From assembly GCF_003018255.1 (NCBI RefSeq), contig NZ_CP027440.1: a stretch of 64,000 nt of DNA, one strand, 5' to 3'. Origin of the DNA: Escherichia coli. Lineage in GTDB: Bacteria > Pseudomonadota > Gammaproteobacteria > Enterobacterales > Enterobacteriaceae. A program made the translations under genes and the position numbers. Shown here in pieces: positions 4,677 through 58,904 of the stretch (the stretch's first letter is position 1; each line of letters starts with the position of its first letter). Under the pieces are notes generated by a model. That model worked only from the letters and a program-made list of their open reading frames with translations. It had not been told where the DNA came from and ran no database searches.

Positions 4677-4815
4677 TCGTTTTTTCTTCGGCATCTTCTT
4701 CGGGAGGTGCCGTCTGGTTAAACACGATCCCGCTCGCATTTTTCCCTAAGTTAAATGAGTAATCTGATGGTGTGTATTTCAGATACACCTTGTCAGCCAC
4801 TAACAGGGAGTGCGT

Positions 4816-5040
4816 ATGTTTCCAGAATACCGAGATTTAATATCCCGTCTGAAAAACGAAAATCCTCGCTTTATGTCCTTGTTCGATAAACACAATAAAC
4901 TTGATCATGAAATTGCCAGAAAGGAAGGTTCCGACGGTCGAGGGTACAATGCGGAAGTGGTCCGCATGAAAAAACAAAAGCTACAGTTAAAAGATGAGAT
5001 GCTCAAAATCCTGCAGCAGGTGAGCGTCAAAGAGGTGTAA
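4816..5040 (+). CDS. ydcH: DUF465-family small protein
   Basis: ORF 4810..5040 (GTG); ATG at 4816 preceded by GGGAG gives 74 aa. Confidence 0.7.
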   Translation: MFPEYRDLISRLKNENPRFMSLFDKHNKLDHEIARKEGSDGRGYNAEVVRMKKQKLQLKDEMLKILQQVSVKEV

Positions 5041-5048
5041 ACTTTCCT

Positions 5049-5073
5049 AAGCCGCCAGCCAGGCGGCTTTTTT
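5049..5073 (+). terminator. Rho-independent terminator downstream of ydcH
   Basis: Hairpin aagccgcc-agcc-aggcggctt followed by T-run. Confidence 0.5.
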
Positions 5074-5102
5074 AACAACTGCATGGATTGACTGGAGATA
5101 AG

Positions 5103-5642
5103 ATGACTGAAACGATAAAAGTAAGTGAATCACTTGAATTACATGCTGTTGCAGAAAGTCATGTCACACCTCTTTATCAGTTAATCTGTAAAAATAGAAC
5201 CTGGTTACAGCAGTCGCTAAACTGGCCGCAGTTTGTTCAAAGTGAAGAGGACACGCGAAAAACGGTGCAGGGTAATGTGATGTTGCATCAACGCGGCTAT
5301 GCCAAAATGTTCATGATTTTCAAAGAAGATGAACTTATCGGCGTTATCTCGTTTAATCGTATTGAACCACTGAATAAAACCGCTGAAATCGGCTACTGGC
5401 TGGACGAATCTCATCAGGGGCAGGGGATCATTTCTCAGGCGCTGCAGGCATTGATTCATCATTACGCTCAGTCTGGTGAACTTAGACGCTTCGTGATCAA
5501 ATGTCGGGTGGACAATGCGCAAAGCAACCAGGTCGCTTTGCGCAATGGTTTTATCCTTGAAGGTTGTCTGAAACAGGCTGAGTTCCTGAATGATGCCTAT
5601 GATGATGTGAACTTATACGCGCGTATTATCGATTCACAATAA
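5103..5642 (+). CDS. rimL: Ribosomal protein L7/L12 serine N-acetyltransferase (GNAT)
   Basis: ORF 5088..5642 (TTG); ATG at 5103 with GGAG 5 nt upstream gives 179 aa; GNAT motifs. Confidence 0.8.
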
Positions 5643-6614
5643 CCCTGCCAGCGGCGTTCGCGTAATGCGCTCCTCGCCGTTAATGACTTTTGGACCACGG
5701 ACATGAACCGTGTCGCCATCAAAGGCTTCAACGACGGCGTGGTCGGTTAACTCCACATGTTTTTCAATTATCACCGCACCTGTAATACGGCTCTCACCTT
5801 GTATTACAACGTGCTCGTCGAGCAGAATCGGTCCGCCACGTACCACGGCATTTCCGCCAATCAAGACATGATGTTTTAACACACAATTACCTTCCACAAT
5901 GGCATATTCCGCCACCTGCGAACTGTAATGAATCGTCGGAATGGCATCTTCTTCTATGCCAGCTTTCACCTGCGCGTGACCGTAGACTTTAGCACAATCG
6001 CATAGCCAGACGTTGTTCTCTTCATTACCTTCAACGCTGGCAAAATCAAAAACTTCGGCGCGATGTTCAATAAAAGCATACCGGACGACGGCATCGCCAT
6101 AAATTTGTGCCTGGTGAACAATACGCGAGGCGCTAACCCTTGCGCGATCATAAATTTGTAGCAGGAGTTGATGGTCGGGCGTTAAGCCTTGTGCGGCGAC
6201 GATCATAGAATGTTGATCAATTAAGGCGTGACCAAATATTCTACATTGCCCGCAAACTAATGAGTCACGAATGGTGACACTGTCACTTATATATGCACCC
6301 TGACTGATTTCACTATTATCGATCCAGACGTTATCCGTTGCGTAAACCTCTCCCCACAGTACGCTGGTGCCGGTGATGCGCGTATTACCGGAAATCACCG
6401 CTCCGCCGAACGCAATAGCATTCTGGTCGTAAATCCAGCAATTTCCTTCCTGTGCTAACACCGTTTCGCAATCGATCCAGCCGCCAGCGGTTCCTGCTAT
6501 CACATCGTTAAAATCGCTCATGGCGATAATCTGCCGTAATAACACACTTTTTTTAGTGCCATCATCCTGATAACTAAAGGCTCGCTGTTCTTCACTTAGA
6601 CGATATTTGCGCAT
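5634..6614 (-). CDS. ydcK: Hexapeptide-repeat (left-handed beta-helix) protein of unknown function
   Basis: 326-aa ORF; repetitive hexapeptide-like pattern; recognised as YdcK. Confidence 0.8.
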
Positions 6615-6737
6615 AGCGTTTTCCCACAGGTGACTTACTATAACCGTAGCAAATTCTGCGGCTCTGGCTATGCTCGAGAAAATTCCATAAAATGCATTTC
6701 AAATATACTTTATAAATTAAACAAAATGAGTAAGAAG

Positions 6738-7730
6738 ATGCAGAGCGATAAAGTGCTCAATTTGCCGGCAGGCTACTTTGGTATTGTGTTGGGGACGATA
6801 GGGATGGGATTTGCCTGGCGCTATGCCAGCCAGGTTTGGCAGGTCAGCCACTGGTTAGGGGATGGGCTGGTGATTCTGGCGATGATCATCTGGGGATTAT
6901 TAACTAGCGCATTTATTACCCGACTCATACGCTTTCCGCATAGCGTGCTGGCGGAAGTGCGCCATCCAGTGCTGAGCAGTTTTGTGAGTTTGTTTCCGGC
7001 AACGACGATGCTGGTGGCGATTGGTTTTGTTCCGTGGTTTCGCCCACTGGCGGTGTGCCTGTTCAGTTTTGGCGTCGTGGTTCAGTTGGCTTATGCCGCC
7101 TGGCAAACTGCGGGATTATGGCGCGGATCTCACCCTGAAGAAGCTACCACGCCTGGACTGTATCTGCCGACAGTTGCCAACAACTTTATCAGCGCAATGG
7201 CCTGTGGTGCGTTGGGCTACACCGACGCCGGTCTGGTGTTTTTAGGCGCAGGCGTTTTCTCATGGCTAAGCCTTGAACCTGTGATCTTGCAGCGTCTGCG
7301 CAGTTCGGGAGAATTACCCACGGCGCTGCGGACATCACTCGGCATTCAGCTCGCTCCTGCGCTGGTGGCCTGTAGTGCCTGGCTGAGCGTCAACGGCGGC
7401 GAGGGTGACACGCTGGCGAAAATGCTTTTCGGTTATGGACTGCTGCAACTGCTGTTTATGCTACGTCTGATGCCATGGTATCTCTCCCAGCCATTTAATG
7501 CTTCATTCTGGAGTTTCTCGTTCGGCGTATCTGCACTGGCAACCACCGGTTTGCATCTGGGGAGTGGCAGCGATAATGGATTTTTCCATACGCTGGCGGT
7601 GCCGCTGTTTATCTTTACCAATTTTATTATTGCAATACTGCTCATCCGTACTTTTGCGCTTCTGATGCAGGGAAAATTGTTAATCAGAACCGAGCGCGCC
7701 GTTTTAATGAAAGCAGAGGACAAAGAATGA
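6738..7730 (+). CDS. tehA: Tellurite resistance protein TehA (C4-dicarboxylate/SLAC-family membrane protein)
   Basis: ORF 6630..7730; ATG at 6738 ([15 protein letters not shown]...) gives 330 aa; polytopic membrane protein. Confidence 0.85.
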
Positions 7731-31626: not shown

Positions 31627-32461
31627 AAGGATAAATGGCGTTCTCTGTATTTATTCGCGATTATCTGTAGGACAAATATGGAGCGCTTGATGAGTCAGAG
31701 CTAAAACAGCAATTGATAAATAAACATGTTGATTTATTCAAGAAAATGGATGTATTTCAAATATTGATTCTTAATATAACCTAATCAATAGATTATCACG
31801 TGAGAGCTGCACATTATTGGAGGGGCAGGGGAAAACACCATTTTGGGAACAATGAATCAGGTACTCTTACCACTGAAGCAAGATCATCCGGGCACCAGGT
31901 GGTGGTGCAGTGCTTTGGAAATGGTCCCCTCGGGGGAGTTGTCATTATTTTCTATGCTATTTGCTTATGATATTCATCAGGTGAATTTAATAAATTCCTA
32001 ATTTTAAATATCCACTATTAAGCCAGTGTTTAACGGCGTTAAGATGGCAATGTGCAGATCATGTTATCAGAGTGGGGCGGTAGCGTATATTCCTTATACA
32101 AACCATCATTCATTTCAATGATTGTTATTGAATTATTTATTGTTGTGAATAAAAAGACATTATGAATATTGGTTTGACTTTGCATATCAGGTTTTTTATT
32201 ATTCGCTCTAATGTACGAGCCTGTCGTGAATAACGTCGAGAACCCATCCGTTGCGTTTGTGATTATTTTGTTGACTAAACAGACACCCGTTTCTCTGAAG
32301 TAAAATCCCATACTAAATCATCACATAACCATGACATTTTTCTGATATTCCCCGGTAACGCCAGATGTCGACTCGCTTATCTCATCCGCCCGACATGTTG
32401 TACATGCAATATGTGCGGATTATTATTCATTTTCACGGAGGTTGCTATGTCAACCGGATTA

Positions 32462-33753
32462 CCAGGGAAAGATCACGTAACGCTGCTTTTTTGCACTAAA
32501 TAATTCGCATTTTATGTTTAAAAATTGAGATATTCCTCATTACCTGAAGCTGTTTTTTATTGCGTATACATGTTCAAATACTCCTTACATAATTAAGGAG
32601 AACAAAATGGAACTTAAAAAATTGATGGAACATATTTCTGTTATCCCCGATTACAGACAAGCCTGGAAAGTGGAACATAAATTGTCGGATATTCTACTGT
32701 TGACTATTTGTGCCGTTATTTCTGGTGCAGAAGGCTGGGAAGATATAGAGGATTTTGGGGAAACACATCTCGATTTTTTGAAGCAATATGGTGATTTTGA
32801 AAATGGTATTCCTGTTCACGATACCATTGCCAGAGTTGTATCCTGTATCAGTCCTGCAAAATTTCACGAGTGCTTTATTAACTGGATGCGTGACTGCCAT
32901 TCTTCAGATGATAAAGACGTTATTGCAATTGATGGAAAAACGCTCCGGCATTCTTATGACAAGAGTCGCCGCAGGGGAGCGATTCATGTCATTAGTGCGT
33001 TCTCAACAATGCACAGTCTGGTCATCGGACAGATCAGGACGGATGAGAAATCCAATGAGATCACAGCTATCCCAGAACTTCTTAACATGATGGATATTAA
33101 AGGAAAAATCATCACAACTGATGCGATGGGTTGCCAGAAAGATATCGCAGATAAGATACAAAAACAGGGCGGTGATTATTTATTCGCTGTAAAAGGAAAT
33201 CAGGGGCGGCTTAATAAAGCCTTTGAGGAAAATTTCCCACTGAAAGAATTAAATAATCCAGAGCATGACAGTTACGCAATTAGTGAAAAAAGTCACGGCA
33301 GAGAAGAAATCCGTCTTCATATTGTTTGCGATGTCCCTGATGAACTTATTGATTTCATGTTTGAATGGAAAGGTCTGAAGAAATTATGCGTGGCAGTCTC
33401 CTTTCGGTCAATAATAGCAGAACAAAAGAAAGAGCCAGAAATGACGGTCAGATATTATATCAGTTCTGCTGATTTAACCGCAGAGAAGTTCGCCACAGCA
33501 ATCCGAAACCACTGGCACGTGGAGAATAAGCTGCACTGGCGTCTGGACGTGGTAATGAATGAAGACGACTGCAAAATAAGAAGAGGAAATGCAGCAGAAT
33601 TATTTTCAGGGATACGGCACATCGCTATTAATATTTTAACGAATGATAATGTATTCAAGGCAGGGTTAAGACGTAAGATGCGAAAAGCAGCCATGGACAG
33701 AAACTACCTGGCGTCAGTCCTTGCGGGGAGCGGGCTTTCGTAATCTTTCCCTG
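32462..33753 (+). mobile_element. H-repeat element (ISAs1-family insertion sequence), copy 1, about 1292 bp with imperfect terminal inverted repeats cagggaaagatca ... taatctttccctg
   Basis: Near-identical to copy 2 at 39125..40415; ends defined by where the two copies lose similarity to each other; IRs read from sequence. Confidence 0.8.
32607..33743 (+). CDS. H-repeat-associated protein / ISAs1-family transposase (378 aa)
   Basis: 378-aa ORF with AAGGAG site; about 97 percent identical to the ORF at 39269..40405; recognised as YdcC/YhhI-type H-rpt protein. Confidence 0.85.
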
Positions 33754-34359
33754 AACACCGAGGTGCTGAATAACCGCACCACGGATGTGATAAACAACCA
33801 TGCTGAGACCATCGGCAACAATCAGGTGATTGCGGTTACCAACAATCAGATACAGACGGTGGGCGTTAACCAGATAGAGACGGTGGGCAGTAACCAGATC
33901 ATTAAAGTGGGCTCTGTTCAGGTGGAAACGATTGGACTTGTTCGTGCGCTGACCGTGGGCGTGGCGTATCAGACGACGGTAGGTGGCATTATGAACACCT
34001 CGGTGGCCCTGATGCAGTCCTCGCAGATCGGTTTGCATAAATCGTTGATGGTCGGGCTGGGTTATGACGTCAAAGTCGGAAATAACGTTACCTTCACCGT
34101 TGGTAAAACGAAAAAGGATGATACCGGACAGACCGCGATTTACTCCGCCGGTGAGCATCTGGAACTCTGCTGTGGTAAGGCAAGGCTGGTGCTGACTAAG
34201 GACGGACAAATTTTTCTCAACGGCACAAAAATTCATTTGCAGGGTAAGGAGCAGGTTAATGGTGACTCACTGTTGATTAACTGGAACTGTGCAGCCTCGA
34301 AATCCCCACCGAAGACCCCTGATGAAAAGCAGGATACGCCGGATATGAGAGAGTACTGA
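33754..34359 (+). pseudogene. VgrG (T6SS spike protein) C-terminal fragment, 5'-truncated at the H-repeat boundary
   Basis: Reading frame open from the H-rpt right end; product carries VgrG C-terminal repeat motifs (VINNHAETIGNNQVIAVTNNQIQTVGVNQIETVGSNQ...). Confidence 0.7.
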
Positions 34360-34425
34360 TCCCGTACCTGTTCGGTATTCAGTAACAAACAAGCATTAAA
34401 AATAAACAGAAGAAGGAATTGAATC

Positions 34426-37400
34426 ATGAGCGGAAAACCAGCGGCGCGTCAGGGAGATATGACTCAGTATGGCGGTCCCATTGTCCAGGGTTCGGCAGGT
34501 GTAAGAATTGGCGCGCCCACCGGCGTGGCGTGCTCGGTGTGTCCGGGCGGGATGACTTCGGGCAACCCGGTAAATCCGCTGCTGGGGGCGAAGGTGCTGC
34601 CCGGCGAGACGGACCTTGCGCTGCCCGGCCCGCTGCCGTTCATTCTCTCCCGCACCTACAGCAGCTACCGGACGAAGACGCCTGCGCCGGTGGGGATTTT
34701 TGGCCCCGGCTGGAAAGCGCCTTCTGATATCCGCTTACAGATACGCGATGATGCACTGGTACTCAACGACAACGGCGGACGGAGCATTCACTTTGAGCCG
34801 CTGCTGCCGGGTGAGGCGGTGTACAGCCGCAGCGAGTCAATGTGGCTGGTGCGCGGTGGTAAGGCAGCGCAGCCGGACGGCCACACGCTGGGGCGGCTGT
34901 GGGGGGCGCTGCCGCCGGATATCCGGTTAAGCCCGCATCTTTACCTGGCGACCAGCAGCGCACAGGGACCGTGGTGGATACTGGGGTGGTCAGAGCGGGT
35001 GCCGGGTGCTGAGGACGTACTGCCAGCGCCGCTGCCGCCGTACCGGGTGCTGACGGGGCTGGCGGACCGCTTCGGGCGGACGCTGACGTACCGGCGTGAG
35101 GCCGCCGGCGACCTGGCCGGGGAAATCACCGGCGTGACGGACGGTGCCGGGCGTGAGTTCCGTCTGGTGCTGACCACGCAGGCGCAGCGTGCGGAAGAGG
35201 CCCGCACCTCTTCGCTATCTTCTTCTGACCGTCCCCGCCCTCTCTCAGTCTCAGCGTTCCCCGACACACTGCCCGGTACCGAATACGGCCCCGACAGGGG
35301 TATCCGCCTTTCGGCGGTGTGGCTGATGCACGACCCGGCATACCCGGAGAGCCTGCCCGGTGCGCCACTGGTGCGGTACACGTATACGGAAGCCGGTGAA
35401 CTGCTGGCGGTATATGACCGCAGCAATACGCAGGTGCGCGCTTTCACGTATGACGCGCAGCACCCGGGCCGGATGGTGGCGCACCGTTACGCGGGAAGGC
35501 CGGAGATGCGCTACCGCTACGACGATGCGGGGCGGGTGGTGGAGCAGCTGAACCCGGCAGGCCTGAGTTACCGCTACCAGTATGAGCAGGACCGCATCAC
35601 CGTCACCGACAGCCTGAACCGGCGTGAGGTGCTGCATACAGAAGGCGGGGCCGGGCTGAAGCGGGTGGTGAAAAAAGAACTGGCGGACGGCAGCGTCACG
35701 CACAGCGGGTATGACGCGGCAGGAAGGCTCACGGCACAGACGGACGCGGCGGGACGGCGGACAGAGTACGGCCTGAATGTGGTGTCCGGCGATATCACGG
35801 ATATCACCACGCCGGACGGGCGGGAGACGAAATTTTACTATAACGACGGGAACCAGTTAACGGCGGTGGTGTACCCGGACGGGCTGGAGAGCAGCCGGGC
35901 ATATGATGAGCTGGACAGACTGGTATCGGAGACATCGCGCAGCGGGGAGACAGTACGCTACCGCTACGATGACGTGCACAGTGAGTTACCGGCGACGACA
36001 ACGGATGCGACGGGCAGCACCCGGCAGATGACCTGGAGCCGCTACGGGCAGTTGCTGGCCTTCACCGACTGCTCGGGCTACCAGACCCGCTATGAATACG
36101 ACCGCTTCGGCCAGATGACGGCGGTTCACCGCGAGGAAGGTATCAGCCTTTACCGCCACTATGACAACCGTGGCCGGTTAACCTCGGTGAAAGACGCACA
36201 GGGCCGTGAAACGCAGTATGAGTACAACGCCGCAGGCGACCTGACTGCCGTTATCACCCCGGACGGCAACCGGAGCGAGACACAGTACGATGCGTGGGGA
36301 AAGGCGGTCAGCACCACGCAGGGCGGGCTGACGCGCAGTATGGAGTACGATGCTGCCGGACGTGTCATCAGCCTGACCAACGAGAACGGCAGTCACAGCG
36401 ACTTCAGCTACGATGCGCTGGACCGCCTGGTACAGCAGGGCGGCTTTGACGGGCGGACGCAACGTTATCATTATGACCTGACCGGAAAACTCACGCAGAG
36501 TGAAGATGAGGGGCTTGTCATCCTCTGGTACTACGATGAATCGGACCGTATCACTCACCGCACGGTGAACGGCGAACCGGCAGAGCAGTGGCAGTATGAT
36601 GGCCACGGCTGGCTGAGAGAAATCAGCCACCTGAGCGAAGGCCACCGTGTTGCCGTCCACTATGGCTACGACGATAAGGGCCGTCTGACCGGGGAGCGCC
36701 AGACGGTGGAGAACCCGGAGACGGGGGAACTGCTGTGGCAGCATGAGACGAAACAGGCATACAACGAACAGGGGCTGGCAAACCGCGTCACGCCGGACAG
36801 CCTGCCGCCGGTGGAGTGGCTGGCCTATGGCAGCGGTTATCTGGCGGGCATGAAGCTGGGCGGGACGCCGCTGCTGGAGTACATGCGGGACAGACTGCAC
36901 CGGGAGACGGTGCGCAGCTTCGGCAGCATGGCAGGCAATACAGCCGCATATGAACTGACCAGCACTTACACCCCCGCAGGCCAGTTACAGAGCCGGCACC
37001 TGAACAGCCTGGTGTTTGATTGTGACTATAACTGGAATGACAACGGCGACCTGATGCGCATCAGCGGCCCGCGACAGACGCGGGAATACGGCTACAGCGC
37101 CACGGGCAGGCTGGAGAGCGTGCGCACCCTCGCACCGGACCTGGACATCCGCATCCCGTATGCCACCGACCCGGCGGGCAACCGGCTGCCGGACCCGGAG
37201 CTGCACCCGGACAGTACACTCACAGTGTGGCCGGATAACCGAATCACCGAAGACGCGCACTACCTGTACCGTTACGATGAATACGGCAGGCTGGCGGAGA
37301 AGACGGACCGCATCCCGGCGGGTGTGATACGGACGGACGACGAGCGGACCCACCACTACCACTACGACAGCCAGCACCGCCTGGTGTTCTATACGCGGAT

Positions 37401-38586
37401 ACAGCATGGCGAGCCACTGGTCGAGAGCCGCTACCTTTACGACCCGCTGGGCCGCCGGACGGGTAAACGGGTATGGCGGCGGGAGCGTGACCTGACGGGG
37501 TGGATGTCGCTGTCGCGTAAACCGGAGGTGACGTGGTACGGCTGGGACGGCGACCACCTGACGACGGTGCAGACCGACACCACGCGTATCCAGACGGTAT
37601 ATCAGCCGGGGAGCTTCGCGCCGCTCATCCGCATCGAAACAGACAACGGTGAGCGGGAGAAAGCGCAGCGCCGCAGCCTGGCGGAGAAGCTGCAGCAGGA
37701 AGGGAGCGAGGACGGGCACGGCGTGGTATTTCCGGCTGAACTGGTGCGGCTGCTGGACAGACTGGAGGAAGAAATCCGGGCAGACCGCGTGAGCAGTGAA
37801 AGCCGGGCGTGGCTTGCGCAGTGCGGGCTGACGGTGGAGCAACTGGAAAAACAGGTGGAGCCGGAATACACACCGGCGCGAAAAGTTCATCTTTACCACT
37901 GCGACCACCGGGGACTGCCGCTGGCGCTTATCAGCGAAGACGGCAATACGGTGTGGAGCGCGGAGTATGATGAATGGGGAAACCTGCTTAATGAGGAGAA
38001 CCCGCATCATGTGTATCAGTCATACCGTCTGCCGGGGCAGCAGCATGATGAGGAGTCGGGGCTGTACTACAACCGGAACCGGTACTACGATCCGTTGCAG
38101 GGGCGGTATATCATCCAGGACCCGATAGGGCTGGCGGGGGGAATAAACCCGTACAGTTATGTTATGAACAATCCTGTGCAATGGATTGATCCATTGGGAT
38201 TAGCTCATACTTCAGGAAAATGGAAGGACTGTGGTAAAGGTTGTCGAATCCGAATAGATGGCGATGCTGTTGGTGACGGAAGACATTTGCATTGGGAGTG
38301 TAAAAATGGGAGTGGTGTAATGGGGGAATTTGGAGGTATGTCCCATGGTGAGGATTACTCATCAGCACCAAATAGCATTAAGAAATGTGCAAAAAAATAT
38401 GGTTTCGAGCCAGAACCAAGTAAAGATCTGTCATGCAAAACCTCCGGGCTATCAACTACTGATGCGGCTCTTGCAACTGGTGCTACAATTGGCGCAGGGT
38501 ATGTTATATATAGAGTGATTCGATTTATACCTTCACTTGCACCACCTCTTTGGTGGTCAATACCTGCAAACGTTGTTACTCCATGA
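34426..38586 (+). CDS. rhsE: Rhs-family polymorphic toxin with N-terminal PAAR motif, YD-repeat core and divergent C-terminal domain (1386 aa)
   Basis: Literal PAAR at residues 5-8 ([11 protein letters not shown]); numerous YD repeats; conserved core end DPIGLAGG...DPLGL at 38119-38202; sharp GC-rich to AT-rich switch after about 38160. Confidence 0.9.
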
Positions 38587-38612
38587 TTAAAACGGATAAT
38601 GGAGATTATATA

Positions 38613-38957
38613 ATGAGCGATTTTGACATTGTGAGTTCAATTGACTGGCATGATGGGGTTTTGTTAGAAGTAAAAACGACATTCAAAGAATCTCATTTTA
38701 ACATGACGTTATTTATTGACATTTATAAAAATGAGAACATTAGGGAAAAAATGATAGTTGAATTTTCTGATGTAGATGATTTAGTGTTCGCTATGGATTC
38801 TGCTGAGTTAATCGATAATCACAAGTCAGGTAATATAAGTAATGGGTATGTAAAGAAATTAAAAAACAAAAGGATATATAAATTTTTTCTTTATTTTTCT
38901 GATGGCTTATTAAGCATGACATTTAAAAATTTACAATTAATAAAACCATTAGAGTAA
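38613..38957 (+). CDS. Putative Rhs immunity protein (small AT-rich ORF downstream of the Rhs C-terminal domain)
   Basis: ORF 38550..38957; ATG 38613 preceded by GGAG at 8-nt spacing (114 aa); alternative ATG 38583 overlaps the rhsE stop as ATGA (124 aa); position and AT-richness typical of Rhs immunity genes. Confidence 0.55.
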   Translation: MSDFDIVSSIDWHDGVLLEVKTTFKESHFNMTLFIDIYKNENIREKMIVEFSDVDDLVFAMDSAELIDNHKSGNISNGYVKKLKNKRIYKFFLYFSDGLLSMTFKNLQLIKPLE

Positions 38958-39124
38958 CCAAATAAAAGGACTGGAGGAATCAGGGGAAGATCATTAAAGT
39001 TGTGATTATCATCACAACTTTAATCTTGGTTTCACCTTGTTGATTTGATTAAAATTTAATCGCCAAATAATTAAATATATTAGAAAAGGACGTCTGGTGA
39101 ACATTCAAAGTCTTCTTGAGCATA

Positions 39125-40415
39125 CAGGGAAAGATCATCAGAAGTACACTTTTTGTACTAAATAATTCGCATTTTATGTTTAAAAATTGAGATATTCCTC
39201 ATTACCTAAAGCTGTTTTTTATTGCTTATACATGATCAAATACTCCTTACATAATTAAGGAGAACAAAATGGAACTTAAAAAATTGATGGGACATATTTC
39301 TATTATCCCCGATTACAGACAAACCTGGAAAGTGGAACATAAATTGTCAGATATTCTACTGTTGATTATTAGTGCCGTTATTTCTGGTGCAGAAGGCTGG
39401 GAAGATATAGAGGATTTTGGGGAAACACATCTCGATTTTTTAAAGCAATATGGTGATTTTAAAAATGGTATTCCTGTTCACGATACCATTGCCAGAGTTG
39501 TATCCTGTATCAGTCCTGCAAAATTTCACGAGTGCTTTATTAACTGGATGCGTGACTGCCATTCTTCAGATGATAAAGACGTCATTGCAATTGATGGAAA
39601 AACGCTCCGGCATTCTTATGACAAGAGTCGTCGCAGGGGAGCGATTCATGTCATTAGTGCATTCTCAACAATGCACAGTCTGGTCATCGGACAGATCAGG
39701 ACGGATGAGAAATCTAATGAGATTACAGCTATCCCTGAACTTCTTAACATGCTGGACATTAAAGGAAAAATTATCACAACTGATGCGATGGGTTGCCAGA
39801 AAGATATTGCAGAGAAGATACAAAAACAGGGAGGTGATTATTTATTCTCTGTAAAAGGAAACCCGGGGCGGCTGAATAAAGCTTTTGAGGAAAAATTTCC
39901 ACTGAAAGAATTAAATAATCCAGAGCATGACAGTTACGCAATTAGTGAAAAGAGTCACGGCAGAGAAGAAATCCGTCTTCACATTGTTTGCGATGTCCCT
40001 GATGAACTTATTGATTTCACGTTTGAATGGAAAGGTCTGAAGAAATTATGCGTGGCAGTCTCCTTTCGGTCAATAATAGCAGAACAAAAGAAAGAGCCAG
40101 AAATGACGGTCAGATATTATATCAGTTCTGCTGATTTAACCGCAGAGATGTTCGCCACAGCAATCCGAAACCACTGGCACGTGGAGAATAAGCTGCACTG
40201 GCGTCTGGACGTGGTAATGAATGAAGACGACTGCAAAATAAGAAGAGGAAACGCCGCAGAATTATTTTCAGGGATACGGCACATCGCTATTAATATTTTA
40301 ACGAATGATAAGGTATTCAAGGCAGGGTTAAGACGTAAGATGCGAAAAGCAGCCATGGACAAAAACTATCTGGCGTCAGTCCTTGCGGGGAGCGGGCTTT
40401 CGTAATCTTTCCCTG
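39125..40415 (+). mobile_element. H-repeat element (ISAs1-family insertion sequence), copy 2, about 1291 bp, same orientation as copy 1
   Basis: Near-identical to 32462..33753 including terminal inverted repeats. Confidence 0.8.
39269..40405 (+). CDS. H-repeat-associated protein / ISAs1-family transposase (378 aa)
   Basis: 378-aa ORF with AAGGAG site; paralogue of 32607..33743. Confidence 0.85.
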
Positions 40416-40419
40416 TATT

Positions 40420-40707
40420 GTGAAATCATCAAGAGTACATATAGATCATGATAAAGATATTTTTGATGGCCTTGACAAAATCTTGGCTTTTTCCGATAAA
40501 AATAAGCATGAGTATTTTTTATATATAAAGGCATATTGGCTCAGTTTATACTTTTGTGAAATTTCTCAGAAAGTGAGAGAAAGAGATAAGTTGTCATTTT
40601 ATTATGATGAATTTTCTGTCCGATTTCCTAATGTTGTCCTATATCCGACATACTTCCAATTGCATGGTTTAGCATCTGAAAAGTCATTGTTAATTCGAGA
40701 CGCTTGA
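40420..40707 (+). other. AT-rich reading frame open from the H-repeat right boundary (95 codons); probable 3' remnant of a gene truncated by the insertion
   Basis: Frame is open right at the element end; no recognisable product. Confidence 0.3.
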
Positions 40708-40986
40708 TTGTCCACTATATCAAAATAGTCATGCCCCGGAATTTTCTCACATTAGTCCATAAGGGATTCAATTTTTGTAATTGCACCCTGAAAAAACCGC
40801 AAAAGTGCTTTGTCGTGTCCTGTCGCAATGAAGTCTGGTGTTAATGTTATACTTTAATTGATATTTAAAGAGATGGCTTCTTTGCTTATATAAATACCCA
40901 TCTATTCTTTCTCAAAAATATTGGCTCAGATTAACCATGTTCCACGCAAACAATTTTCAAACATTCATCAATAGATAAGGAATTCC

Positions 40987-41454
40987 ATGATTATACGACC
41001 AGTCAAACCTTCAGATGTTGAACCATTACTGGATATGCTGCTTGCCAGTGGACAATTTAATCAAGATGGCCTTCATCATGTACAAAAAACACTAACACAT
41101 TATTTCTCAGGTCAATCTGCCGATTTATGGTTTAGTGCAGAACACTTAGGACTGGCAGGGATTGCCTATTGCGCTCCTGAAGTGATGACAAATGATGTCT
41201 GGAATTTATTAATGCACTGGATCAGTCCTTCCCATCAGCGCCAGGGAGTGGGACATCTGCTGATTAACGAAATAGAAAAGGAGCTCACAATTAAACAGGC
41301 AAGACTACTTTTAGTAGAGACCTCCAGCTATGTCGATTTTAGTGCCGCCCGCGCATTTTATACATAACAGGGCTTTATCAATGAAGCTATAATACGCAAT
41401 TACTATGATGTTGGTGAGGATAAATTAATCTTCACTAAAAATATGCAATCGTGA
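40987..41454 (+). pseudogene. GNAT-family N-acetyltransferase interrupted by an in-frame TAA at 41365-41367
   Basis: ORF 40987..41367 (126 aa) continues in the same frame for 28 more codons to TGA 41452-41454; sequence around the stop reads AFYT*QGF versus the GNAT consensus FY.K.GF. Confidence 0.6.
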
Positions 41455-41520
41455 GATAAAATATGCTTTTAACTCATATTGAAACATTGCTTAAGCAACT
41501 TGGTTGCTGCATATGATTCT

Positions 41521-47095: not shown

Positions 47096-50000
47096 TTTTT
47101 CGCCTCCTGTACCTGATCGCGACCTTCATCATCCAGCCAGTTAACGTTCTTCATCTTGCGGATCATGATGAATTCGTCACGGTTCGAGCCGACGGTGCCG
47201 TAGTAATTAAAGCCCCAGGCCAGCTGCGCGTAACCGCCAATCATATGCGTTGGTTTCGGACAAACGCGGGTGACCGAGTTATGAATGCCGCCGCGCATGC
47301 CAGTTACTTCCGAACCAGGAATATTCATAATGCGTTCCTGGGCGTGATACATCATGGTCATACCCGGCGGTACACGTTGGCTGACCACCGCGCGGGCAGT
47401 CAGCGCGCCGTTGGCGTTAAACACTTCCACCCAGTCGTTATCGACAATGGTCAGTTCACGGGCATCGGTTTCGCTAATCCAGACAATCGGTCCACCGCGA
47501 GAGAGCGTCAGCATTAGCAGGTTTTCACTGTAGGTTGAGTGAATGCCCCATTTCTGATGCGGCGTCAGGAAGTTAAGTGCTTTTTCCGGGAAGCCGTTTG
47601 GCGGTATCTGGCGCATTTCACTGACGCTACGGGTGTCGATAGGCGGGCGATAAGCCACCAGGCTTTCACCAAAAGCACGCATCCACGGATGATCCTGATA
47701 GAGCTGCTGGCGTCCCGACAGCGTGCGCCACGGAATTAACTCATGAACGTTGGTGTACCCCGCGTTATAGGAAACGTGATCGCTTTCCAGACCGGACCAT
47801 GTGGGGCTGGAGATAATTTTACGTGGCTGCGCCTGAATATCGCGAAAGCGAATCTTCTCGTCCTCTTTGTGCAGCGCCAGATGGGTATGTTCGCGTCCGG
47901 TGATCTCGCCCAGCGCCTGCCACGCTTTGACTGCAACATGACCATTGGTTTCCGGTGCAAGAGCCAGAATCACTTCTGATGCGTCAATGGCGGTGTCAAT
48001 CAGCGGACGCCCCTGTGCCGGGCCTTCACGCTTGGTGTAGTTGAGTTTGCCGAGGAAATCGATTTCATCCTGGGTATTCCACGAAATCCCTTTACCGCCG
48101 TTGCCAAGTTTGTCCATCAATGGCCCGAGCGAGGTAAAGCGTTCATAGGTAGCAGGGTAGTCGCGTTCCACCGCTACAATATTCGGCGCGGTTTTACCCG
48201 GGATCAGATCGCATTCGCCTTTGCGCCAGTCGAGCACTTCACACGGCTGGGAGAGTTCTGCCGGAGAGTCATGCAGCAGTGGTTGTAATACCACGTCGGT
48301 TTCTTTGCCAAGATGGCCCACGCACACTTGCGAAAATGCTTTGGCAATACCTTTGTAGATTTCCCAGTCGCTGCGTGATTCCCAGGCCGGATCGACCGCC
48401 GCAGAAAGCGGATGAATAAATGGATGCATATCCGAGGTGTTCATATCGTCTTTTTCATACCAGGTGGCGGTGGGCAGAACGATATCGGAGAACAGGCAGG
48501 TACTGGACATACGGAAGTCGAGCGTCACCAGCAGGTCGAGCTTGCCTTCAATCGCCGCAGTTTGCCACTCGACTTCTTCTGGTTTGATCCCGTCGCTGGC
48601 ACCGAGTTCCTCACCCTGAATCCCACTTTCGGTTCCCAGCAGATACTTCTGCATATACTCGTGACCTTTGCCGGAGGAGCCAAGCAGGTTAGAACGCCAG
48701 ACAAACAAATTACGCGGATGATTGCTGCCCCTATCTGGTTGTTCGCAGGCCATGCGTAAATCGCCCGATTTCAGCGCCTGGGCGGTGAATTCTGTGGGGG
48801 ATAATCCGGCCTTGTCGGCTTCAGCTTTAATCCCGAGCGGGTTACACCCCAGCTGCGGCGCAGAAGGTAGCCAGCCCATACGTTCGGCACGAACGTTGAA
48901 ATCAATCAGATGACCGCTGTACTTACTGGCATCGGCGAGCGGTGAAAGTAACTCCTGAGCAGAGACTTTTTCATAGCGCCATTGACTGGAATGATTGTAG
49001 AAAAACGAGGTGCTGTTCATCTGGCGCGGTGGGCGGTTCCAGTCGAGCGCAAAGGCCAGCGGCAACCAGCCAGTTTGTGGGCGCAGTTTTTCCTGACCGA
49101 CATAGTGTGCCCATCCGCCACCGCTTTGCCCGACACAACCGCAGAAGATCAGCATATTGATCATTCCCCGGTAGTTCATGTCCATGTGGTACCAGTGGTT
49201 AACACCTGCGCCGAGGATAATCATCGAGCGCCCATGCGTTTTATGGGCAGTATCGGCAAATTCACGAGCGATGGTTTCAATATACTGGCGCGGCACACCG
49301 GTAATTTGCTCACCCCAGGCTGGGGTGTACGGTTTGATTTCAGCGTAATCTTTCGCGCTGTTTTCATCTTCCAGCCCGCGATCGAGGCCGTAATTCGCCA
49401 GTACCAAATCATAAACGCTGACCACCGGACAGGTGTTGCCATCGGCTAATGTCAGGTTTTTAACGGGCAATTGGCGCACCAGGACCGGATTGTGTTTTAC
49501 GCTGCGAAAATGCGGATTTTCAATGCCGCCAAAGTAGGGGAAGGCCACGCCTGCAACGGCATCATGTTGACCGAGCAGAGTTAACGACAATTCGGTTTCC
49601 GTACCGGCGGCAATGGATTCCAGATTCCATTTGCCTTTTTCTCCCCAGCGAAAACCAATCGAACCGTTCGGCACCACCAGTTCGCCTGCTGTATTAACTG
49701 CTACGGTTTTCCACTGCGGATTGTTGCTTTCGCCCAGTCCATCTACCAGGTCAGACGCGCGGATCATGCGCCCGGGTACGTAGCTGCCATCGTCGCGAGG
49801 TTCCAGCATTACCAGCATCGGCATGTCGCTGTAGCGGCGGCAGTAGTTGATAAAGTAGTCGCTGGGATTATCGAGATGAAACTCTTTTAAAATCACATGG
49901 CCCATTGCCATCGCCAGGGCGCTATCAGTGCCTTGTTTTGGTGCCAGCCACTGGTCGCACAATTTGGCCACTTCAGAGTAGTCAGGGGTAATTGCGATGG

Positions 50001-50832
50001 TTTTAGTGCCTTTGTAGCGTACTTCGGTAAAGAAATGGGCGTCCGGCGTACGTGTCTGCGGTACGTTAGACCCCCAGGCGATGATGTAACTGGAGTTATA
50101 CCAGTCGGCAGATTCTGGCACGTCGGTTTGCTCACCCCAGGTCATCGGCGAGGCGGGCGGCAGGTCGCAATACCAGTCGTAGAAGCTTAAACAGGTGCCA
50201 CCTAACAGCGACAGATAGCGTGTTCCGGCGGCGTAAGAAACCATCGACATCGCCGGAATCGGCGAGAACCCGGCAACGCGATCCGGGCCGTAAGTTTTGA
50301 TGGTCCAGACGTTAGCGGCGGCAATCAGCTGATTTAGCTCCTGCCAGTTGGAGCGGATAAAGCCACCGCGTCCACGCACTTGTTTATAGCTCAGGCACTT
50401 TTGCGGATCGTTCATAATCGATGCCCACGCCAGTACCGGATCGCTGTGTTGCTTGAGGGCTTCGCGCCACAGTTCAATCAGTCGTTTACGAATGAGCGGG
50501 TATTTCAGGCGGTTAGCGCTGTAGAGATACCAGGAGTAACTTGCGCCACGCGGGCAGCCGCGAGGTTCATGATTTGGCAGGTCAGGGCGAGTGCGCGGGT
50601 AGTCGGTCTGTTGGATTTCCCAGGTCACCAGACCATTTTTAACGTAGATTTTCCAGCTACAGGAGCCTGTACAGTTAACACCGTGGGTGGAACGCACGAT
50701 TTTGTCGAACTGCCAACGCTGGCGATAGCTGTCCTCCCAGTCGCGGTTGCTGTGCATCACCTGTCCGTGACCATCGGCAAAGGTTTCGCCCTTTTGTTTA
50801 AAGTAGCGAAAGCGATCCAAAAGTTTACTCAT
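47092..50832 (-). CDS. narZ: Nitrate reductase Z alpha subunit (molybdopterin catalytic subunit)
   Basis: ORF 47092..50955; start set at ATG 50832 (MSKLLDRFRYFKQ...) giving 1246 aa; overlaps narY by 4 nt. Confidence 0.9.
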   Translation of the reverse strand: MSKLLDRFRYFKQKGETFADGHGQVMHSNRDWEDSYRQRWQFDKIVRSTHGVNCTGSCSWKIYVKNGLVTWEIQQTDYPRTRPDLPNHEPRGCPRGASYSWYLYSANRLKYPLIRKRLIELWREALKQHSDPVLAWASIMNDPQKCLSYKQVRGRGGFIRSNWQELNQLIAAANVWTIKTYGPDRVAGFSPIPAMSMVSYAAGTRYLSLLGGTCLSFYDWYCDLPPASPMTWGEQTDVPESADWYNSSYIIAWGSNVPQTRTPDAHFFTEVRYKGTKTIAITPDYSEVAKLCDQWLAPKQGTDSALAMAMGHVILKEFHLDNPSDYFINYCRRYSDMPMLVMLEPRDDGSYVPGRMIRASDLVDGLGESNNPQWKTVAVNTAGELVVPNGSIGFRWGEKGKWNLESIAAGTETELSLTLLGQHDAVAGVAFPYFGGIENPHFRSVKHNPVLVRQLPVKNLTLADGNTCPVVSVYDLVLANYGLDRGLEDENSAKDYAEIKPYTPAWGEQITGVPRQYIETIAREFADTAHKTHGRSMIILGAGVNHWYHMDMNYRGMINMLIFCGCVGQSGGGWAHYVGQEKLRPQTGWLPLAFALDWNRPPRQMNSTSFFYNHSSQWRYEKVSAQELLSPLADASKYSGHLIDFNVRAERMGWLPSAPQLGCNPLGIKAEADKAGLSPTEFTAQALKSGDLRMACEQPDRGSNHPRNLFVWRSNLLGSSGKGHEYMQKYLLGTESGIQGEELGASDGIKPEEVEWQTAAIEGKLDLLVTLDFRMSSTCLFSDIVLPTATWYEKDDMNTSDMHPFIHPLSAAVDPAWESRSDWEIYKGIAKAFSQVCVGHLGKETDVVLQPLLHDSPAELSQPCEVLDWRKGECDLIPGKTAPNIVAVERDYPATYERFTSLGPLMDKLGNGGKGISWNTQDEIDFLGKLNYTKREGPAQGRPLIDTAIDASEVILALAPETNGHVAVKAWQALGEITGREHTHLALHKEDEKIRFRDIQAQPRKIISSPTWSGLESDHVSYNAGYTNVHELIPWRTLSGRQQLYQDHPWMRAFGESLVAYRPPIDTRSVSEMRQIPPNGFPEKALNFLTPHQKWGIHSTYSENLLMLTLSRGGPIVWISETDARELTIVDNDWVEVFNANGALTARAVVSQRVPPGMTMMYHAQERIMNIPGSEVTGMRGGIHNSVTRVCPKPTHMIGGYAQLAWGFNYYGTVGSNRDEFIMIRKMKNVNWLDDEGRDQVQEAKK

Positions 50833-50868
50833 GACATAACTCCTGCTCCAGGAATGAATTGGGATCTG

Positions 50869-50920
50869 ATGCCTTGTCGGATGCGACACGGTTGTAGCCT
50901 GATAAGACGTGTCAGGCATC
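50869..50920. repeat. REP-like palindromic element between narU and narZ
   Basis: gtagcctgataagacgtgtcaggcatc resembles the REP consensus. Confidence 0.45.
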
Positions 50921-50926
50921 GATCTC

Positions 50927-52315
50927 TTATTTTTGGCTGAACTTCCGCCGACCATAAACCAGCCAGGTCAGTAGCACACAAACGATGTAGAAGATTAAAA
51001 ACACTTTCATCGCGCCCACCGGAGAGCCGGTCATATTGAGCGACATGCCAAACGCCTGCGGAATAAAAAAGCCGCCCACTGCGCCAATGGCTGAGATAAA
51101 GCCCAGAGCGGCTGCCGTTTCGGTGATGGCTTCTCTTTGAGCTTGCTCATCACTACCGCCTTTCATCTTCACCCGATAAATTGTTATCTGGCGAAAGATG
51201 ACGGCGATCATCTGGAAAGTAGAACCACTTCCCAGACCCGCGGTCAGAAACAGCCCCATAAATACGGCGTAAAATGCGATGAAATTACCGGAGCCTGTGC
51301 CCGGTAAGGTAAGGAACAGCAGGGCGCTGAAAATCGCCATAAAAATGAAGTTGATCAACGTCACCCGCACGCCGCCGAATTTATCGGAAATAGCACCACC
51401 AACCGATCGCGCGATGGCACCGATAAATGGGCCAAAGAACGCCAGGCGCAGAATATTCACATCCGGGAACTGGGTTTTTGCCAGCATGGCAAAACCCGCA
51501 GAAAAACCGATAAACGAACCGAAGGTGGCAAGGTAAAGCAGGCTCAGCAGCCAGAGATGCAGGCGTTGTAAGACAGGGAGCTGGTCGGCAATTGAGGCGC
51601 GTGAACTGGCGATATCATTCATCCCTGACCAGGCGGCGATCGTGGCAATCGCCAGTAATGGCACCCAAATCCATGCGGCATTCGCCAGCGACATCACCGA
51701 ACCGTCGGCCTGCGGTACGCCATTGACGCCGAGAAAGGCAAATACGGGGACAAAAATGACCAGCGGTGCAACCAGCTGCATCACACTTACACCTAAGTTT
51801 CCTAATCCGCCATTAATCCCAAGAGCGCTCCCTTGTTTGGCTTTTGGAAAGAAGAAACTGATATTGCCCATGCTCGAAGCAAAGTTCGCACCTGCAAAAC
51901 CGCATAGCAAAGCGATAACGATAAATATCCCAAAAGGAGTATTCGGATTCTGCACGGCAATTCCGAGCCAGACGCAAGGAATAATCAGGATTGCAGTACT
52001 AAAAACCGTCCATCGGCGTCCACCGAATATAGGCACCATAAAGGAGTAGGGGACACGCAATAATGCGCCAGAAACGGAGGGTAATGCGGTTAATAAAAAG
52101 AGTTGATCGGTAGTGAAATTAAAACCGATTTTATTGAGATTAACAGTAACTGCGCTAAATAGCATCCAGACACAGAAGGCAAGAAGTAGGCAACTGACTG
52201 ATATCCAGAGGTTTCTTCGTGCAATATGCTTTCCTTTATTTTCCCAGAAGGCCGGATTTTCTGGTTTCCAGTCGCGTAAAAGATAACGACTATTTTTCTC
52301 ATTTTGCAGTGCCAT
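50927..52315 (-). CDS. narU: Nitrate/nitrite transporter (MFS)
   Basis: ORF 50927..52357; start set at ATG 52315 (MALQNEKNSRYLLRDW...) giving 462 aa. Confidence 0.85.
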   Translation of the reverse strand: MALQNEKNSRYLLRDWKPENPAFWENKGKHIARRNLWISVSCLLLAFCVWMLFSAVTVNLNKIGFNFTTDQLFLLTALPSVSGALLRVPYSFMVPIFGGRRWTVFSTAILIIPCVWLGIAVQNPNTPFGIFIVIALLCGFAGANFASSMGNISFFFPKAKQGSALGINGGLGNLGVSVMQLVAPLVIFVPVFAFLGVNGVPQADGSVMSLANAAWIWVPLLAIATIAAWSGMNDIASSRASIADQLPVLQRLHLWLLSLLYLATFGSFIGFSAGFAMLAKTQFPDVNILRLAFFGPFIGAIARSVGGAISDKFGGVRVTLINFIFMAIFSALLFLTLPGTGSGNFIAFYAVFMGLFLTAGLGSGSTFQMIAVIFRQITIYRVKMKGGSDEQAQREAITETAAALGFISAIGAVGGFFIPQAFGMSLNMTGSPVGAMKVFLIFYIVCVLLTWLVYGRRKFSQK

Positions 52316-52587
52316 ATTGTTCCTCACATGCACACATTGGTAATGAAAAAAAGACAAAACAGGAGGTAAGGCGCAATAGCCAGTTATTAGAATTAAGGAT
52401 GAATCAGGTGAAGTGCTGATTAGAAGAATAGATAAGAAAGCGTAACTGCGGGGGCAGAATGTGGATTAAACAGACAGATATGTGTTACTAAATGTAACTA
52501 AAATGGCTTTCTGGTATTTGAAATTTATTTTTTAATATTGTCAGAATTTATCTGATTAACTGCCGGGCCGTAGACCCGACAATTATT

Positions 52588-53469
52588 TTAGCCACGACGT
52601 GTCGCCAGCCAGCAGAGCAGGGAACCGCCGCAGACCATTAGCGCGCCTTGCCAGAACGAGAACGACAGCGGGGCGCTGAGCAGCACGGCTGCAAGCGCTG
52701 AGGAAAGGACGGGCGTAAAATACGAACCTACCGCCATAATGGTGACGTTGCCATGTAATATACCGACGTTCCATGCAGCATAAGCAAATCCTAAGGTAAA
52801 TGCCGCAGAGATGAGTTTAATCATGACTGGCGTGCTAAATACCATTTCTGGTTGTGGCGTGAGAAAATAGTAAACCCACAGACTTGCTCCCGTTAGCAGG
52901 ACAAAAACGGTAATTCCGTTAAATCCGCGTGCGTATTTATTCGTTACTGTGCAGTAGGCTGCCCAGATAAACGCACCAATAAACGACAGGAAATAACTCA
53001 ATGGGCTGGTGGTGATATTATTGATGATTTCATCATAATGTAACCCATTGTCACCACCTAACACCCAGCAGACGCCGACCAGGGCTAATAATAATCCTGG
53101 TACAATCAGCCAGTTGGTTTTCTGACCATTAAACAGAATGGCAAAGAGAATTGTCAGGCTGGGCCATAGATAGTTCACCATCCCCACTTCAATCGCCTGA
53201 TGACGGGTCGCCGCATACCCTAAGGAAAGCGCCAGACAGATTTCATAGCTGACGAATAACAGACTCCCGGCGAGTAAATAGCCTTTCGGGATCTGCCGAA
53301 TACGCGGAAATCCAACCGTGAAGATTAACAGCAGCCCGCTTAATGAATAGATAGCAGCTGCGCCGCCGACCGGGCCGAGCCCCTCACTGACACCGCGAAT
53401 CAATCCTACCATCGTGCTCCACAGGACGATCGCTATTAGCCCTATGAGCGTTGCTTTTTGTCGTGTCAT
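52588..53469 (-). CDS. yddG: Aromatic amino acid exporter (DMT/EamA family)
   Basis: 293-aa hydrophobic ORF; divergent from fdnG. Confidence 0.85.
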   Translation of the reverse strand: MTRQKATLIGLIAIVLWSTMVGLIRGVSEGLGPVGGAAAIYSLSGLLLIFTVGFPRIRQIPKGYLLAGSLLFVSYEICLALSLGYAATRHQAIEVGMVNYLWPSLTILFAILFNGQKTNWLIVPGLLLALVGVCWVLGGDNGLHYDEIINNITTSPLSYFLSFIGAFIWAAYCTVTNKYARGFNGITVFVLLTGASLWVYYFLTPQPEMVFSTPVMIKLISAAFTLGFAYAAWNVGILHGNVTIMAVGSYFTPVLSSALAAVLLSAPLSFSFWQGALMVCGGSLLCWLATRRG

Positions 53470-58313: not shown

Positions 58314-58344
58314 AAATGGCGCTTTAAGAAGCGCCATTTTTTTA
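58314..58344. terminator. Rho-independent terminator after fdnI (aaatggcgc-tttaagaa-gcgccattt + TTTTT); overlaps the 3' end of convergent yddM
   Basis: Hairpin plus T-run read from sequence. Confidence 0.6.
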
Positions 58345-58626
58345 TTGCGTAACCAGACGGCGCAGTCGCGACACATCCACCGTTTTTTCAGCCTCTGCCA
58401 GGCTCCAGGCGTTTTGCAGATTCAGCCACATTTGCGGCGAACTGCCGATCACCACGGAAAGTTTAATCGCCATTTCCGGAGTGAGCGCCGCTTTTCCGGT
58501 CAGCAATCGGCTTGCCGTTGAGGGCGCAATTTCCATTGCTCTGGCAAACTCGCGCAGGCTGACATTAAGTTCGTCCAGTGATTCCTGAATAATGTCCCCC
58601 GGGCGGGGATGATTGGCCATTTTCAT
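58342..58626 (-). CDS. yddM: HigA-family antitoxin (XRE-type HTH)
   Basis: 94-aa ORF; HTH ([22 protein letters not shown]); immediately downstream of and overlapping a HigB-like ORF. Confidence 0.8.
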
Positions 58627-58904
58627 CAGTGATAGTCCTCGTAATCCAGTATGTATGCATCGCCATTGACGAATTCAAATGTGATTCGCCAGTTGCCCGA
58701 GACAGATATCGCCCAAATTCCATCGCGATCGCCGCTTAACGGGTGTAGTCGGTAACCGGGCATATCGATATCAGCAAGACAGCTTGCTGCATCAATCACA
58801 GCGAGTCGGTGGCGTAATCGTTTGACTTGCGTCGGTATAACGCCGGAGGTTTTGCCGAGAAGAAACAAGTCACGCAATCCCTTGTGTCTGAAATTCATTA
58901 TCAT
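58626..58904 (-). CDS. HigB-like toxin (RelE/ParE superfamily mRNA interferase)
   Basis: 92-aa ORF; resembles Proteus HigB as recalled from memory (…HKGL…LHPL.GDR.G.W.I.V..NWRITF.F.NGDAYIL.YEDYH); 1-nt overlap with yddM; likely true start a few codons in (MNFRHKGL). Confidence 0.8.

Follow-up and report, generated by a model that had tools for sequence, protein, structure and literature searches.

The empty narU–yddG slot of an Escherichia coli genome as a probable derived deletion in a variable porin islet

The 64,000-nucleotide stretch of Escherichia coli contig NZ_CP027440.1 analysed here (the window) carries narU and yddG as adjacent, co-directional genes 272 bp apart, whereas the corresponding interval of K-12 MG1655 measures 2,227 bp and holds yddJ, yddK and yddL. 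The missing DNA is a variable chromosomal islet, published as O-island 62 of EDL933, and the allele of the window is very probably a derived deletion whose right end lies inside an old yddG–porin spacer, and not a site that was never occupied. To the islet history as a whole, in which an ancestral porin was joined by added LRR genes and the slot was cleared by a single deletion in the lineage of the window, we assign a probability of roughly 0.87. The polymorphism has already been documented and is of an ordinary type, with no new kind of element or mechanism.

Anatomy of the narU–yddG spacer

The features of the locus are compiled in Table 1. The start of narU was placed at the ATG at 52315, in agreement with the RefSeq annotation of UTI89 and JNE23-011, and the intergenic interval therefore spans 52316-52587. 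The original prediction, that yddJ-yddK-yddL are absent between narU and yddG, is borne out by this interval, and its estimate of about 230 bp for the gap stands as the distance between open reading frames, as 52357 is the end of a TTG-extended, 476-aa narU frame; the true intergenic distance is 272 bp. The K-12 gene order that it gave is also correct, since NC_000913.3 annotates yddJ (a pseudogene), yddK and yddL between the two genes, and with 2,227 bp at this position K-12 does not share the short interval. UTI89 and JNE23-011 are annotated in the same way as the window, with narU and yddG adjacent and the same 272-bp gap. At the nucleotide level narU is 99.6% identical to the UTI89 gene and 97.7% identical to that of K-12.

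Table 1. Coordinates of the features at the narU–yddG locus, given as positions in the window
Feature	Coordinates	Strand	Description and basis
narU CDS	50927..52315	-	462-aa nitrate/nitrite transporter, first gene of narUZYWV; ORF list and RefSeq annotation of collinear loci
narU upstream regulatory region	52316..52501	-	186 bp, intact in every allele; distal end is the left breakpoint
OmpR-type tandem repeat (candidate)	52482..52498	-	GTTACATTTAGTAACAC, which reads GTTACTAAATGTAAC (a palindrome) on the + strand; lies 3 bp away from the breakpoint
Junction	52502..52507	.	6 bases, AATGGC, where other E. coli hold 1,960 to ~4,160 bp; blastn against K-12, O157, 042, ES5 and strain 405
yddG 3' flank	52508..52587	-	80 bp, present in every E. 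coli allele; identity to the flank in K-12 and O157 ~96%
yddG CDS	52588..53469	-	293-aa aromatic amino acid exporter, EamA/DMT family; ORF list, RefSeq annotations, Pfam EamA on the E. albertii orthologue

Comparison with K-12 by blastn located the break of the window at 52501/52508. The K-12 segment 1544247-1546206 (L001 6248-8207; 1,960 bp, 33.7% G+C) is replaced in the window by AATGGC, so that the junction reads ...GTAACTAA/AATGGC/TTTCTGG... Upstream of narU, the alignment with K-12, O157, 042, ES5 and strain 405 ends at 52501 or 52499, and the homology reaches the same left point in Citrobacter, Enterobacter and other Escherichia species. Microhomology at the junction is confined to a common TAA followed by bases that are weakly similar (8 of 13), so little that no mechanism is readable from the junction. 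The alignments to K-12 and O157 skip the entire cassette, with no porin sequence between 52316 and 52587 and no LRR gene (espR1, yddK or yddJ) beside narU in the window. Strains with the empty allele would accordingly encode neither an OmpD-type porin, a protein that could serve as an antigen and as a receptor for phages or colicins, nor an EspR1-type LRR protein at this locus.

The 3' flank of yddG contains a hairpin with a 13-bp stem at ~52557-52585 (RNA fold -29.8 kcal/mol, z = -5.3), which is probably the yddG terminator; the yddG of E. albertii bears the same 3' hairpin. As it has no T-run, this hairpin was missed by a simple terminator scan. The promoter and terminator scans of the spacer returned one promoter-like match, which is at chance level, and no terminator call, and an Rfam search of the spacer for structured RNA gave no match at E up to 1. 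The ORF list contains no frame of 40 aa or longer lying wholly within the 272-bp spacer, and the frames listed there overlap narU or yddG.

Filled alleles, their frequency and the surrounding genome

In O157:H7, 042 and ES5 the slot holds ~4.15 kb, comprising an intact 366-aa general porin beside yddG, fragments of LRR genes and an LRR gene of 418 to 419 aa, which PGAP annotates as the T3SS effector espR1. The Porin_1 and LRR domains of the cassette proteins were confirmed with Pfam and NCBIfam. Strain 405 has an intermediate form of ~2,536 bp. All filled alleles (K-12, O157, 042, ES5, strain 405) share the boundaries 52501 and 52508, and the cassettes between them measure 1,960, ~2,536 and ~4,150 bp. 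The K-12 cassette equals the O157 cassette minus positions 4683-5323 and 5650-7185 of the O157 locus (L002), and as a result of these two missing stretches yddL consists of the first 96 porin codons while yddK and yddJ represent a fused, frameshifted LRR gene. The yddJKL set is what remains of a larger ompD-plus-LRR islet and does not amount to three genuine genes; in K-12 it should be read as gene wreckage and not as a reference gene set. What the window lacks is this islet, cleanly deleted, and not a group of genes peculiar to K-12.

The G+C content is 36% for the cassette overall, 33% for the LRR genes and 44% for the porin, against ~50% in the flanks. Neither direct nor inverted terminal repeats mark the cassette ends, and no IS end, integrase or tRNA lies there; the possibility that the cassette is a transposon or an integrative island was rejected on these grounds, yet its LRR part is compositionally foreign. 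The island has been described as O-island 62 (z2239-z2242) between yddG and narU, with yddL and yddJ as remnants of z2239 and z2242, and was regarded as a whole as a recent acquisition (PMC3079680, Okeke et al. 2011). In the enteroaggregative strain 042 (EAEC), assigned to phylogroup D in the literature, Ec042-1601 has been described as a functional ompD, and Ec042-1600 as a putative effector (PMC2808357, Chaudhuri et al. 2010). Between the same boundary points at least four structural alleles exist in E. coli, in addition to IS1 and IS5 insertions, and independent losses have occurred in other Escherichia species, so that the proposal of an indel hot spot at this locus is a reasonable one. 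The carriers of the island are presumably members of phylogroups D/F (PMC3079680).

The alleles were counted over 5,426 complete E. coli genomes. A junction-spanning 60-mer (52475-52534) is present in 1,117 of them (~21%), and the narrow spacer, detected with a contiguous 1.3-kb probe, in 1,133. The K-12-type cassette was found in 3,131 genomes of the same set and the full-length porin in 1,112, and these three classes cover ~99% of the genomes. The 60-mer is 100% identical in 280 records, among them UTI89, ATCC 25922 and DSM 30083 (= ATCC 11775), and the exact junction is also carried by an APEC O2:K1:H5 strain, Ecol_AZ161 and Ecol_732; all of these named strains we take to belong to phylogroup B2. 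With the junction identical in its carriers, the empty allele is a deletion of single origin common to ~21% of complete E. coli genomes and a clean lineage marker.

The expectation of a non-K-12 lineage was upheld by the identity values as well as by the junction haplotype, which is that of UTI89, ATCC 25922 and DSM 30083. Over long blocks the locus is 95.6-98.3% identical to MG1655, and JNE23-011 is collinear with it at 99.1-99.97% identity. Over 24.5 kb of the window, identity reaches 99% or more in only 4 of 5,468 records. The nearest genomes are JNE23-011, JNE112863 and DETEC-S792, none of which bears a phylogroup label; the Clermont markers fall outside the window, and the genome of the window belongs to a rarer lineage close to JNE23-011.

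An alignment of the whole window to K-12 1,490,000-1,566,000 confirmed the indel together with the other differences that had been pointed out, namely an intact rhsE, a missing pptA and an extra HigB-like frame. A 1,386-aa Rhs frame occupies 34426-38586 where K-12 has the rhsE pseudogene. The Rhs region as a whole (32380-41520) is longer than and different from that of K-12, which there holds the rhsE pseudogene, ydcD, yncI and ydcC, and its arrangement matches JNE23-011; two 378-aa ISAs1/H-repeat transposase frames (32607-33743 and 39269-40405) flank the Rhs core frame. The absence of pptA follows from the alignment to K-12, which resumes at 1533282, inside the end of yddH. At the pptA site (40416-41520) the window has ~1.1 kb with a 126-aa frame (40987-41367) that is a GNAT acetyltransferase in the JNE23-011 annotation; pptA is likewise not annotated in UTI89 and 042. 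The 92-aa HigB/RelE-like toxin frame (58626-58904) lies beside yddM/higA (58342-58626) and abuts it. As UTI89, 042, JNE23-011 and E. albertii have the toxin–yddM pair too, the orphan yddM of K-12 is the derived state, and as UTI89 has the HigB-like toxin and is without pptA, K-12 is the odd one out for those two features. Two further differences were seen. The K-12 element IS609 (1503161-1504908) is absent from the window, its flanks joining cleanly at 9383/9384, and at 58314-58347 the window is without ~322 bp found in K-12 between fdnI and yddM (1552048-1552369); in JNE23-011 an IS200C is inserted at about this fdnI–yddM point.

Polarity of the change and competing explanations

To establish the polarity of the change, species-representative genomes were scanned with YddG. 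Neither E. albertii nor E. fergusonii was represented by name among the loci returned, nor was an E. coli type-strain locus recognisable there, so absence from the list does not count as evidence, and E. albertii was reached via a porin protein search. A porin directly downstream of yddG on the same strand was found in Citrobacter, Salmonella arizonae and diarizonae, Enterobacter, Lelliottia, E. albertii, O157, 042 and ES5; the order in Citrobacter is yddG, porin, a GFA-family gene, smvA, smvR and narU. A neighbour-joining tree and an identity matrix place the porin of the E. coli locus among these syntenic porins, to which it is 74-75% identical, and apart from OmpC, OmpF, OmpN and PhoE of K-12, to which it is 60-62% identical. 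It stands on a long branch, NCBIfam assigns it only to the 'porin OmpC' subfamily, and its G+C content is 44% against 48-52% in the Citrobacter and Salmonella counterparts. Upstream of the porin ATG, ~180 bp including the promoter and 5' UTR are conserved between O157/042 and Citrobacter, Salmonella and Enterobacter.

The E. albertii locus (CP034213.1; L094 6003-11417) shows yddG, the hairpin, the spacer, the porin promoter blocks and a porin split by IS1. The porin is 91% identical to that of O157 in amino acids and 82% in nucleotides, and the flanking segments are 77-90% identical in nucleotides. The narU upstream region, with its OmpR-type repeat, begins ~110 bp after the porin stop, at the equivalent of window position 52503; a second IS1 fragment lies between this region and narU, and narU is followed by an Rhs gene and not by narZ. 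No LRR genes are present in the slot of CP034213.1. Across the right breakpoint of the window, the yddG–porin spacer of E. albertii runs collinear with the filled O157 allele, and does so at a divergence like that of the flanks; this makes the porin and its promoter the ancestral occupants of the position, and the LRR genes, with their low G+C, the added part of the islet.

Short yddG–narU gaps without a porin were also found in two loci labelled E. coli, L007 (2981-3240) and L008 (8880-9160). Their nucleotide identity is 88.6-89.8% in narU, and 87-90% in narU and yddG overall, which marks them as Escherichia divergent at the species level. Because their yddG-side sequence is not homologous to that of the window, they appear to represent separate, independent losses, which likewise stop at the OmpR-type repeat. 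In Escherichia sp. MOD1-EC7003 (L005 8001-16876) yddG is followed directly by nhoA, ansP, yncE and a TonB-dependent receptor; the narUZYWV-yddE block is missing in its entirety, as is the rhs region. Loss in the yddG–narU slot is evidently recurrent among Escherichia.

A different polarity, in which the empty site is ancestral in E. coli and the porin-plus-LRR cassette was acquired horizontally and later by non-B2 lineages, with no loss in the window, appears improbable. The low G+C of the cassette compared with its flanks and the view of Okeke et al. that the island was recently acquired (PMC3079680) speak for it, and the absence of the porin from L007, L008 and B2 would, taken alone, fit a later gain in non-B2 E. 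coli as well. The foreign look is, however, limited to the LRR part. Citrobacter, Salmonella and Enterobacter have a homologous porin in the same place and orientation, with ~180 bp of homologous promoter; E. albertii follows the filled allele collinearly across the right breakpoint, with a porin no more diverged than its surroundings; and no insertion signatures were found at the cassette ends. The junctions of L007 and L008, moreover, differ from that of the window on the yddG side and so record events of their own. An assembly or sequence artefact, by which a collapsed or mis-joined region would have produced the short gap, has a negligible chance of being correct; it is refuted by the population data, the junction being identical in the 1,117 independently finished genomes, and RefSeq has the two genes adjacent at the same distance in UTI89 and JNE23-011.

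How the genome of the window obtained the deleted allele is a separate matter, on which one proposal complements the deletion model. The strain may not be mainstream B2, and the deleted segment may have been imported by homologous recombination from a B2-type donor, which we consider possible though somewhat doubtful. Along 42000-63000 the per-kb identity ranges from 91.7 to 99.5% to UTI89 and from 88.5 to 99.4% to 042, the closest reference switching every few kb; the identity to UTI89 peaks (98.8-99.5%) at 50000-53000, around the junction, and 042 is closer elsewhere. This mosaic identity suggests frequent recombination in the region. Such a pattern, the scarcity of records with high identity over the 24.5 kb and the 60-mer identical to those of UTI89, ATCC 25922 and DSM 30083 would be expected after an import. 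The mosaicism may nevertheless affect all lineages, and vertical descent from a common ancestor with B2 is compatible with the same observations.

The deletion of an ancestral porin is therefore the preferred reading, and we infer the following order of events. In the ancestor of E. coli and E. albertii, yddG would have been followed directly by an ompD-type general porin under a promoter of its own. In E. coli, low-G+C LRR genes (espR1 and a second LRR gene, both annotated as type III secretion effectors) would then have been placed between the porin and narU to give the ~4.15-kb form, of which most A/B1-type strains including K-12 would retain a doubly deleted wreck. The allele of the window would have arisen by one deletion with its ends ~80 bp downstream of the yddG stop and 3 bp away from the OmpR-type repeat. 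It would have left the 6 bases of the junction, which are unassignable, and the removed DNA may or may not already have included LRR genes. An ancestral porin followed by the addition of LRR genes and then by erosion or deletion would be a small refinement of the published view of a recent acquisition.

The repeat at the left boundary and comparison with known loci

The left breakpoint lies next to a candidate OmpR site. The OmpR tandem repeat is quoted as GTTACATTTTGTTACAT by Seo et al. (PMC5438342), and GTTACATTTAGTAACAC agrees with it at 14 of 17 bases. It is the only match to GTTACATTTTGTTACAT in the 64-kb window at three or fewer mismatches, with 0.13 expected by chance. Across 25 narU loci drawn from Escherichia, Citrobacter, Enterobacter, Kluyvera and Raoultella, a TTAC-N5-7-GTAA motif occurs 172-183 bp upstream of the narU ATG in 24. 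OmpR occupancy of the narUZYWV promoter has been reported by ChIP-exo, with peak P10 at 1542224-1542283 in the coordinates of that paper, and narU was down 47-fold in an ompR knockout (PMC5438342). The candidate repeat probably coincides with this published peak. The match of coordinates assumes a genome-version offset that we take to be ~1,976 bp, with which the centre of P10 would fall on the motif copy of K-12 (1544229-1544243). GTTAC-N5-GTAAC was also considered as another palindromic operator; the consensus sequences of ArcA, NarL, TyrR, Fis and FNR gave no fit, and the literature pointed to OmpR.

B2-type E. coli and two further Escherichia species show clean losses that end at the repeat. 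It is plausible that selection to retain OmpR control of narUZYWV explains the left edge shared by these independent losses. The remodellings of the slot (smvAR in Citrobacter, a bare porin in E. albertii, LRR genes in E. coli, clean losses) all stop within a few bases of the repeat, which leads to the wider idea that the OmpR-type repeat is the selectively fixed edge of a replaceable slot and that the proximity of yddG could alter the expression of the NarZ operon. This wider idea we regard as unlikely. In the empty allele the co-directional yddG ends ~85 bp from the repeat, and, were the idea true, read-through from yddG or the changed upstream DNA context could cause the OmpR- and stress-dependent NarZ nitrate reductase operon to be expressed differently in B2-type strains than in K-12.

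Among the closest known loci, the B2-type junction of UTI89, ATCC 25922 and DSM 30083 has the same 60-mer, the same gap and 99.3-99.5% identity over the surrounding 1 kb; it differs in its setting, as the identity of the window to UTI89 falls elsewhere to 92-97%. O-island 62 and its 042 equivalent (Ec042-1599 to -1601) occupy the same slot with the same boundaries and are the filled counterpart of the empty site, whereas the window is without the porin, espR1 and the LRR fragments and has 6 bp left. The yddJ-yddK-yddL segment of K-12 also sits in this slot between these boundaries, and K-12 and the window are both without a functional porin, but K-12 retains 1,960 bp (the 5' 96 codons of the porin and the fused LRR gene) where the window retains nothing. 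The yddG-ompD-(GFA)-smvA-smvR-narU locus of Salmonella and Citrobacter has the same flanking genes in the same orientation and an OmpR-type repeat ~175 bp upstream of narU; it has kept ompD and the smvAR efflux module, whereas Escherichia has lost smvAR and the allele of the window appears to have lost ompD too.
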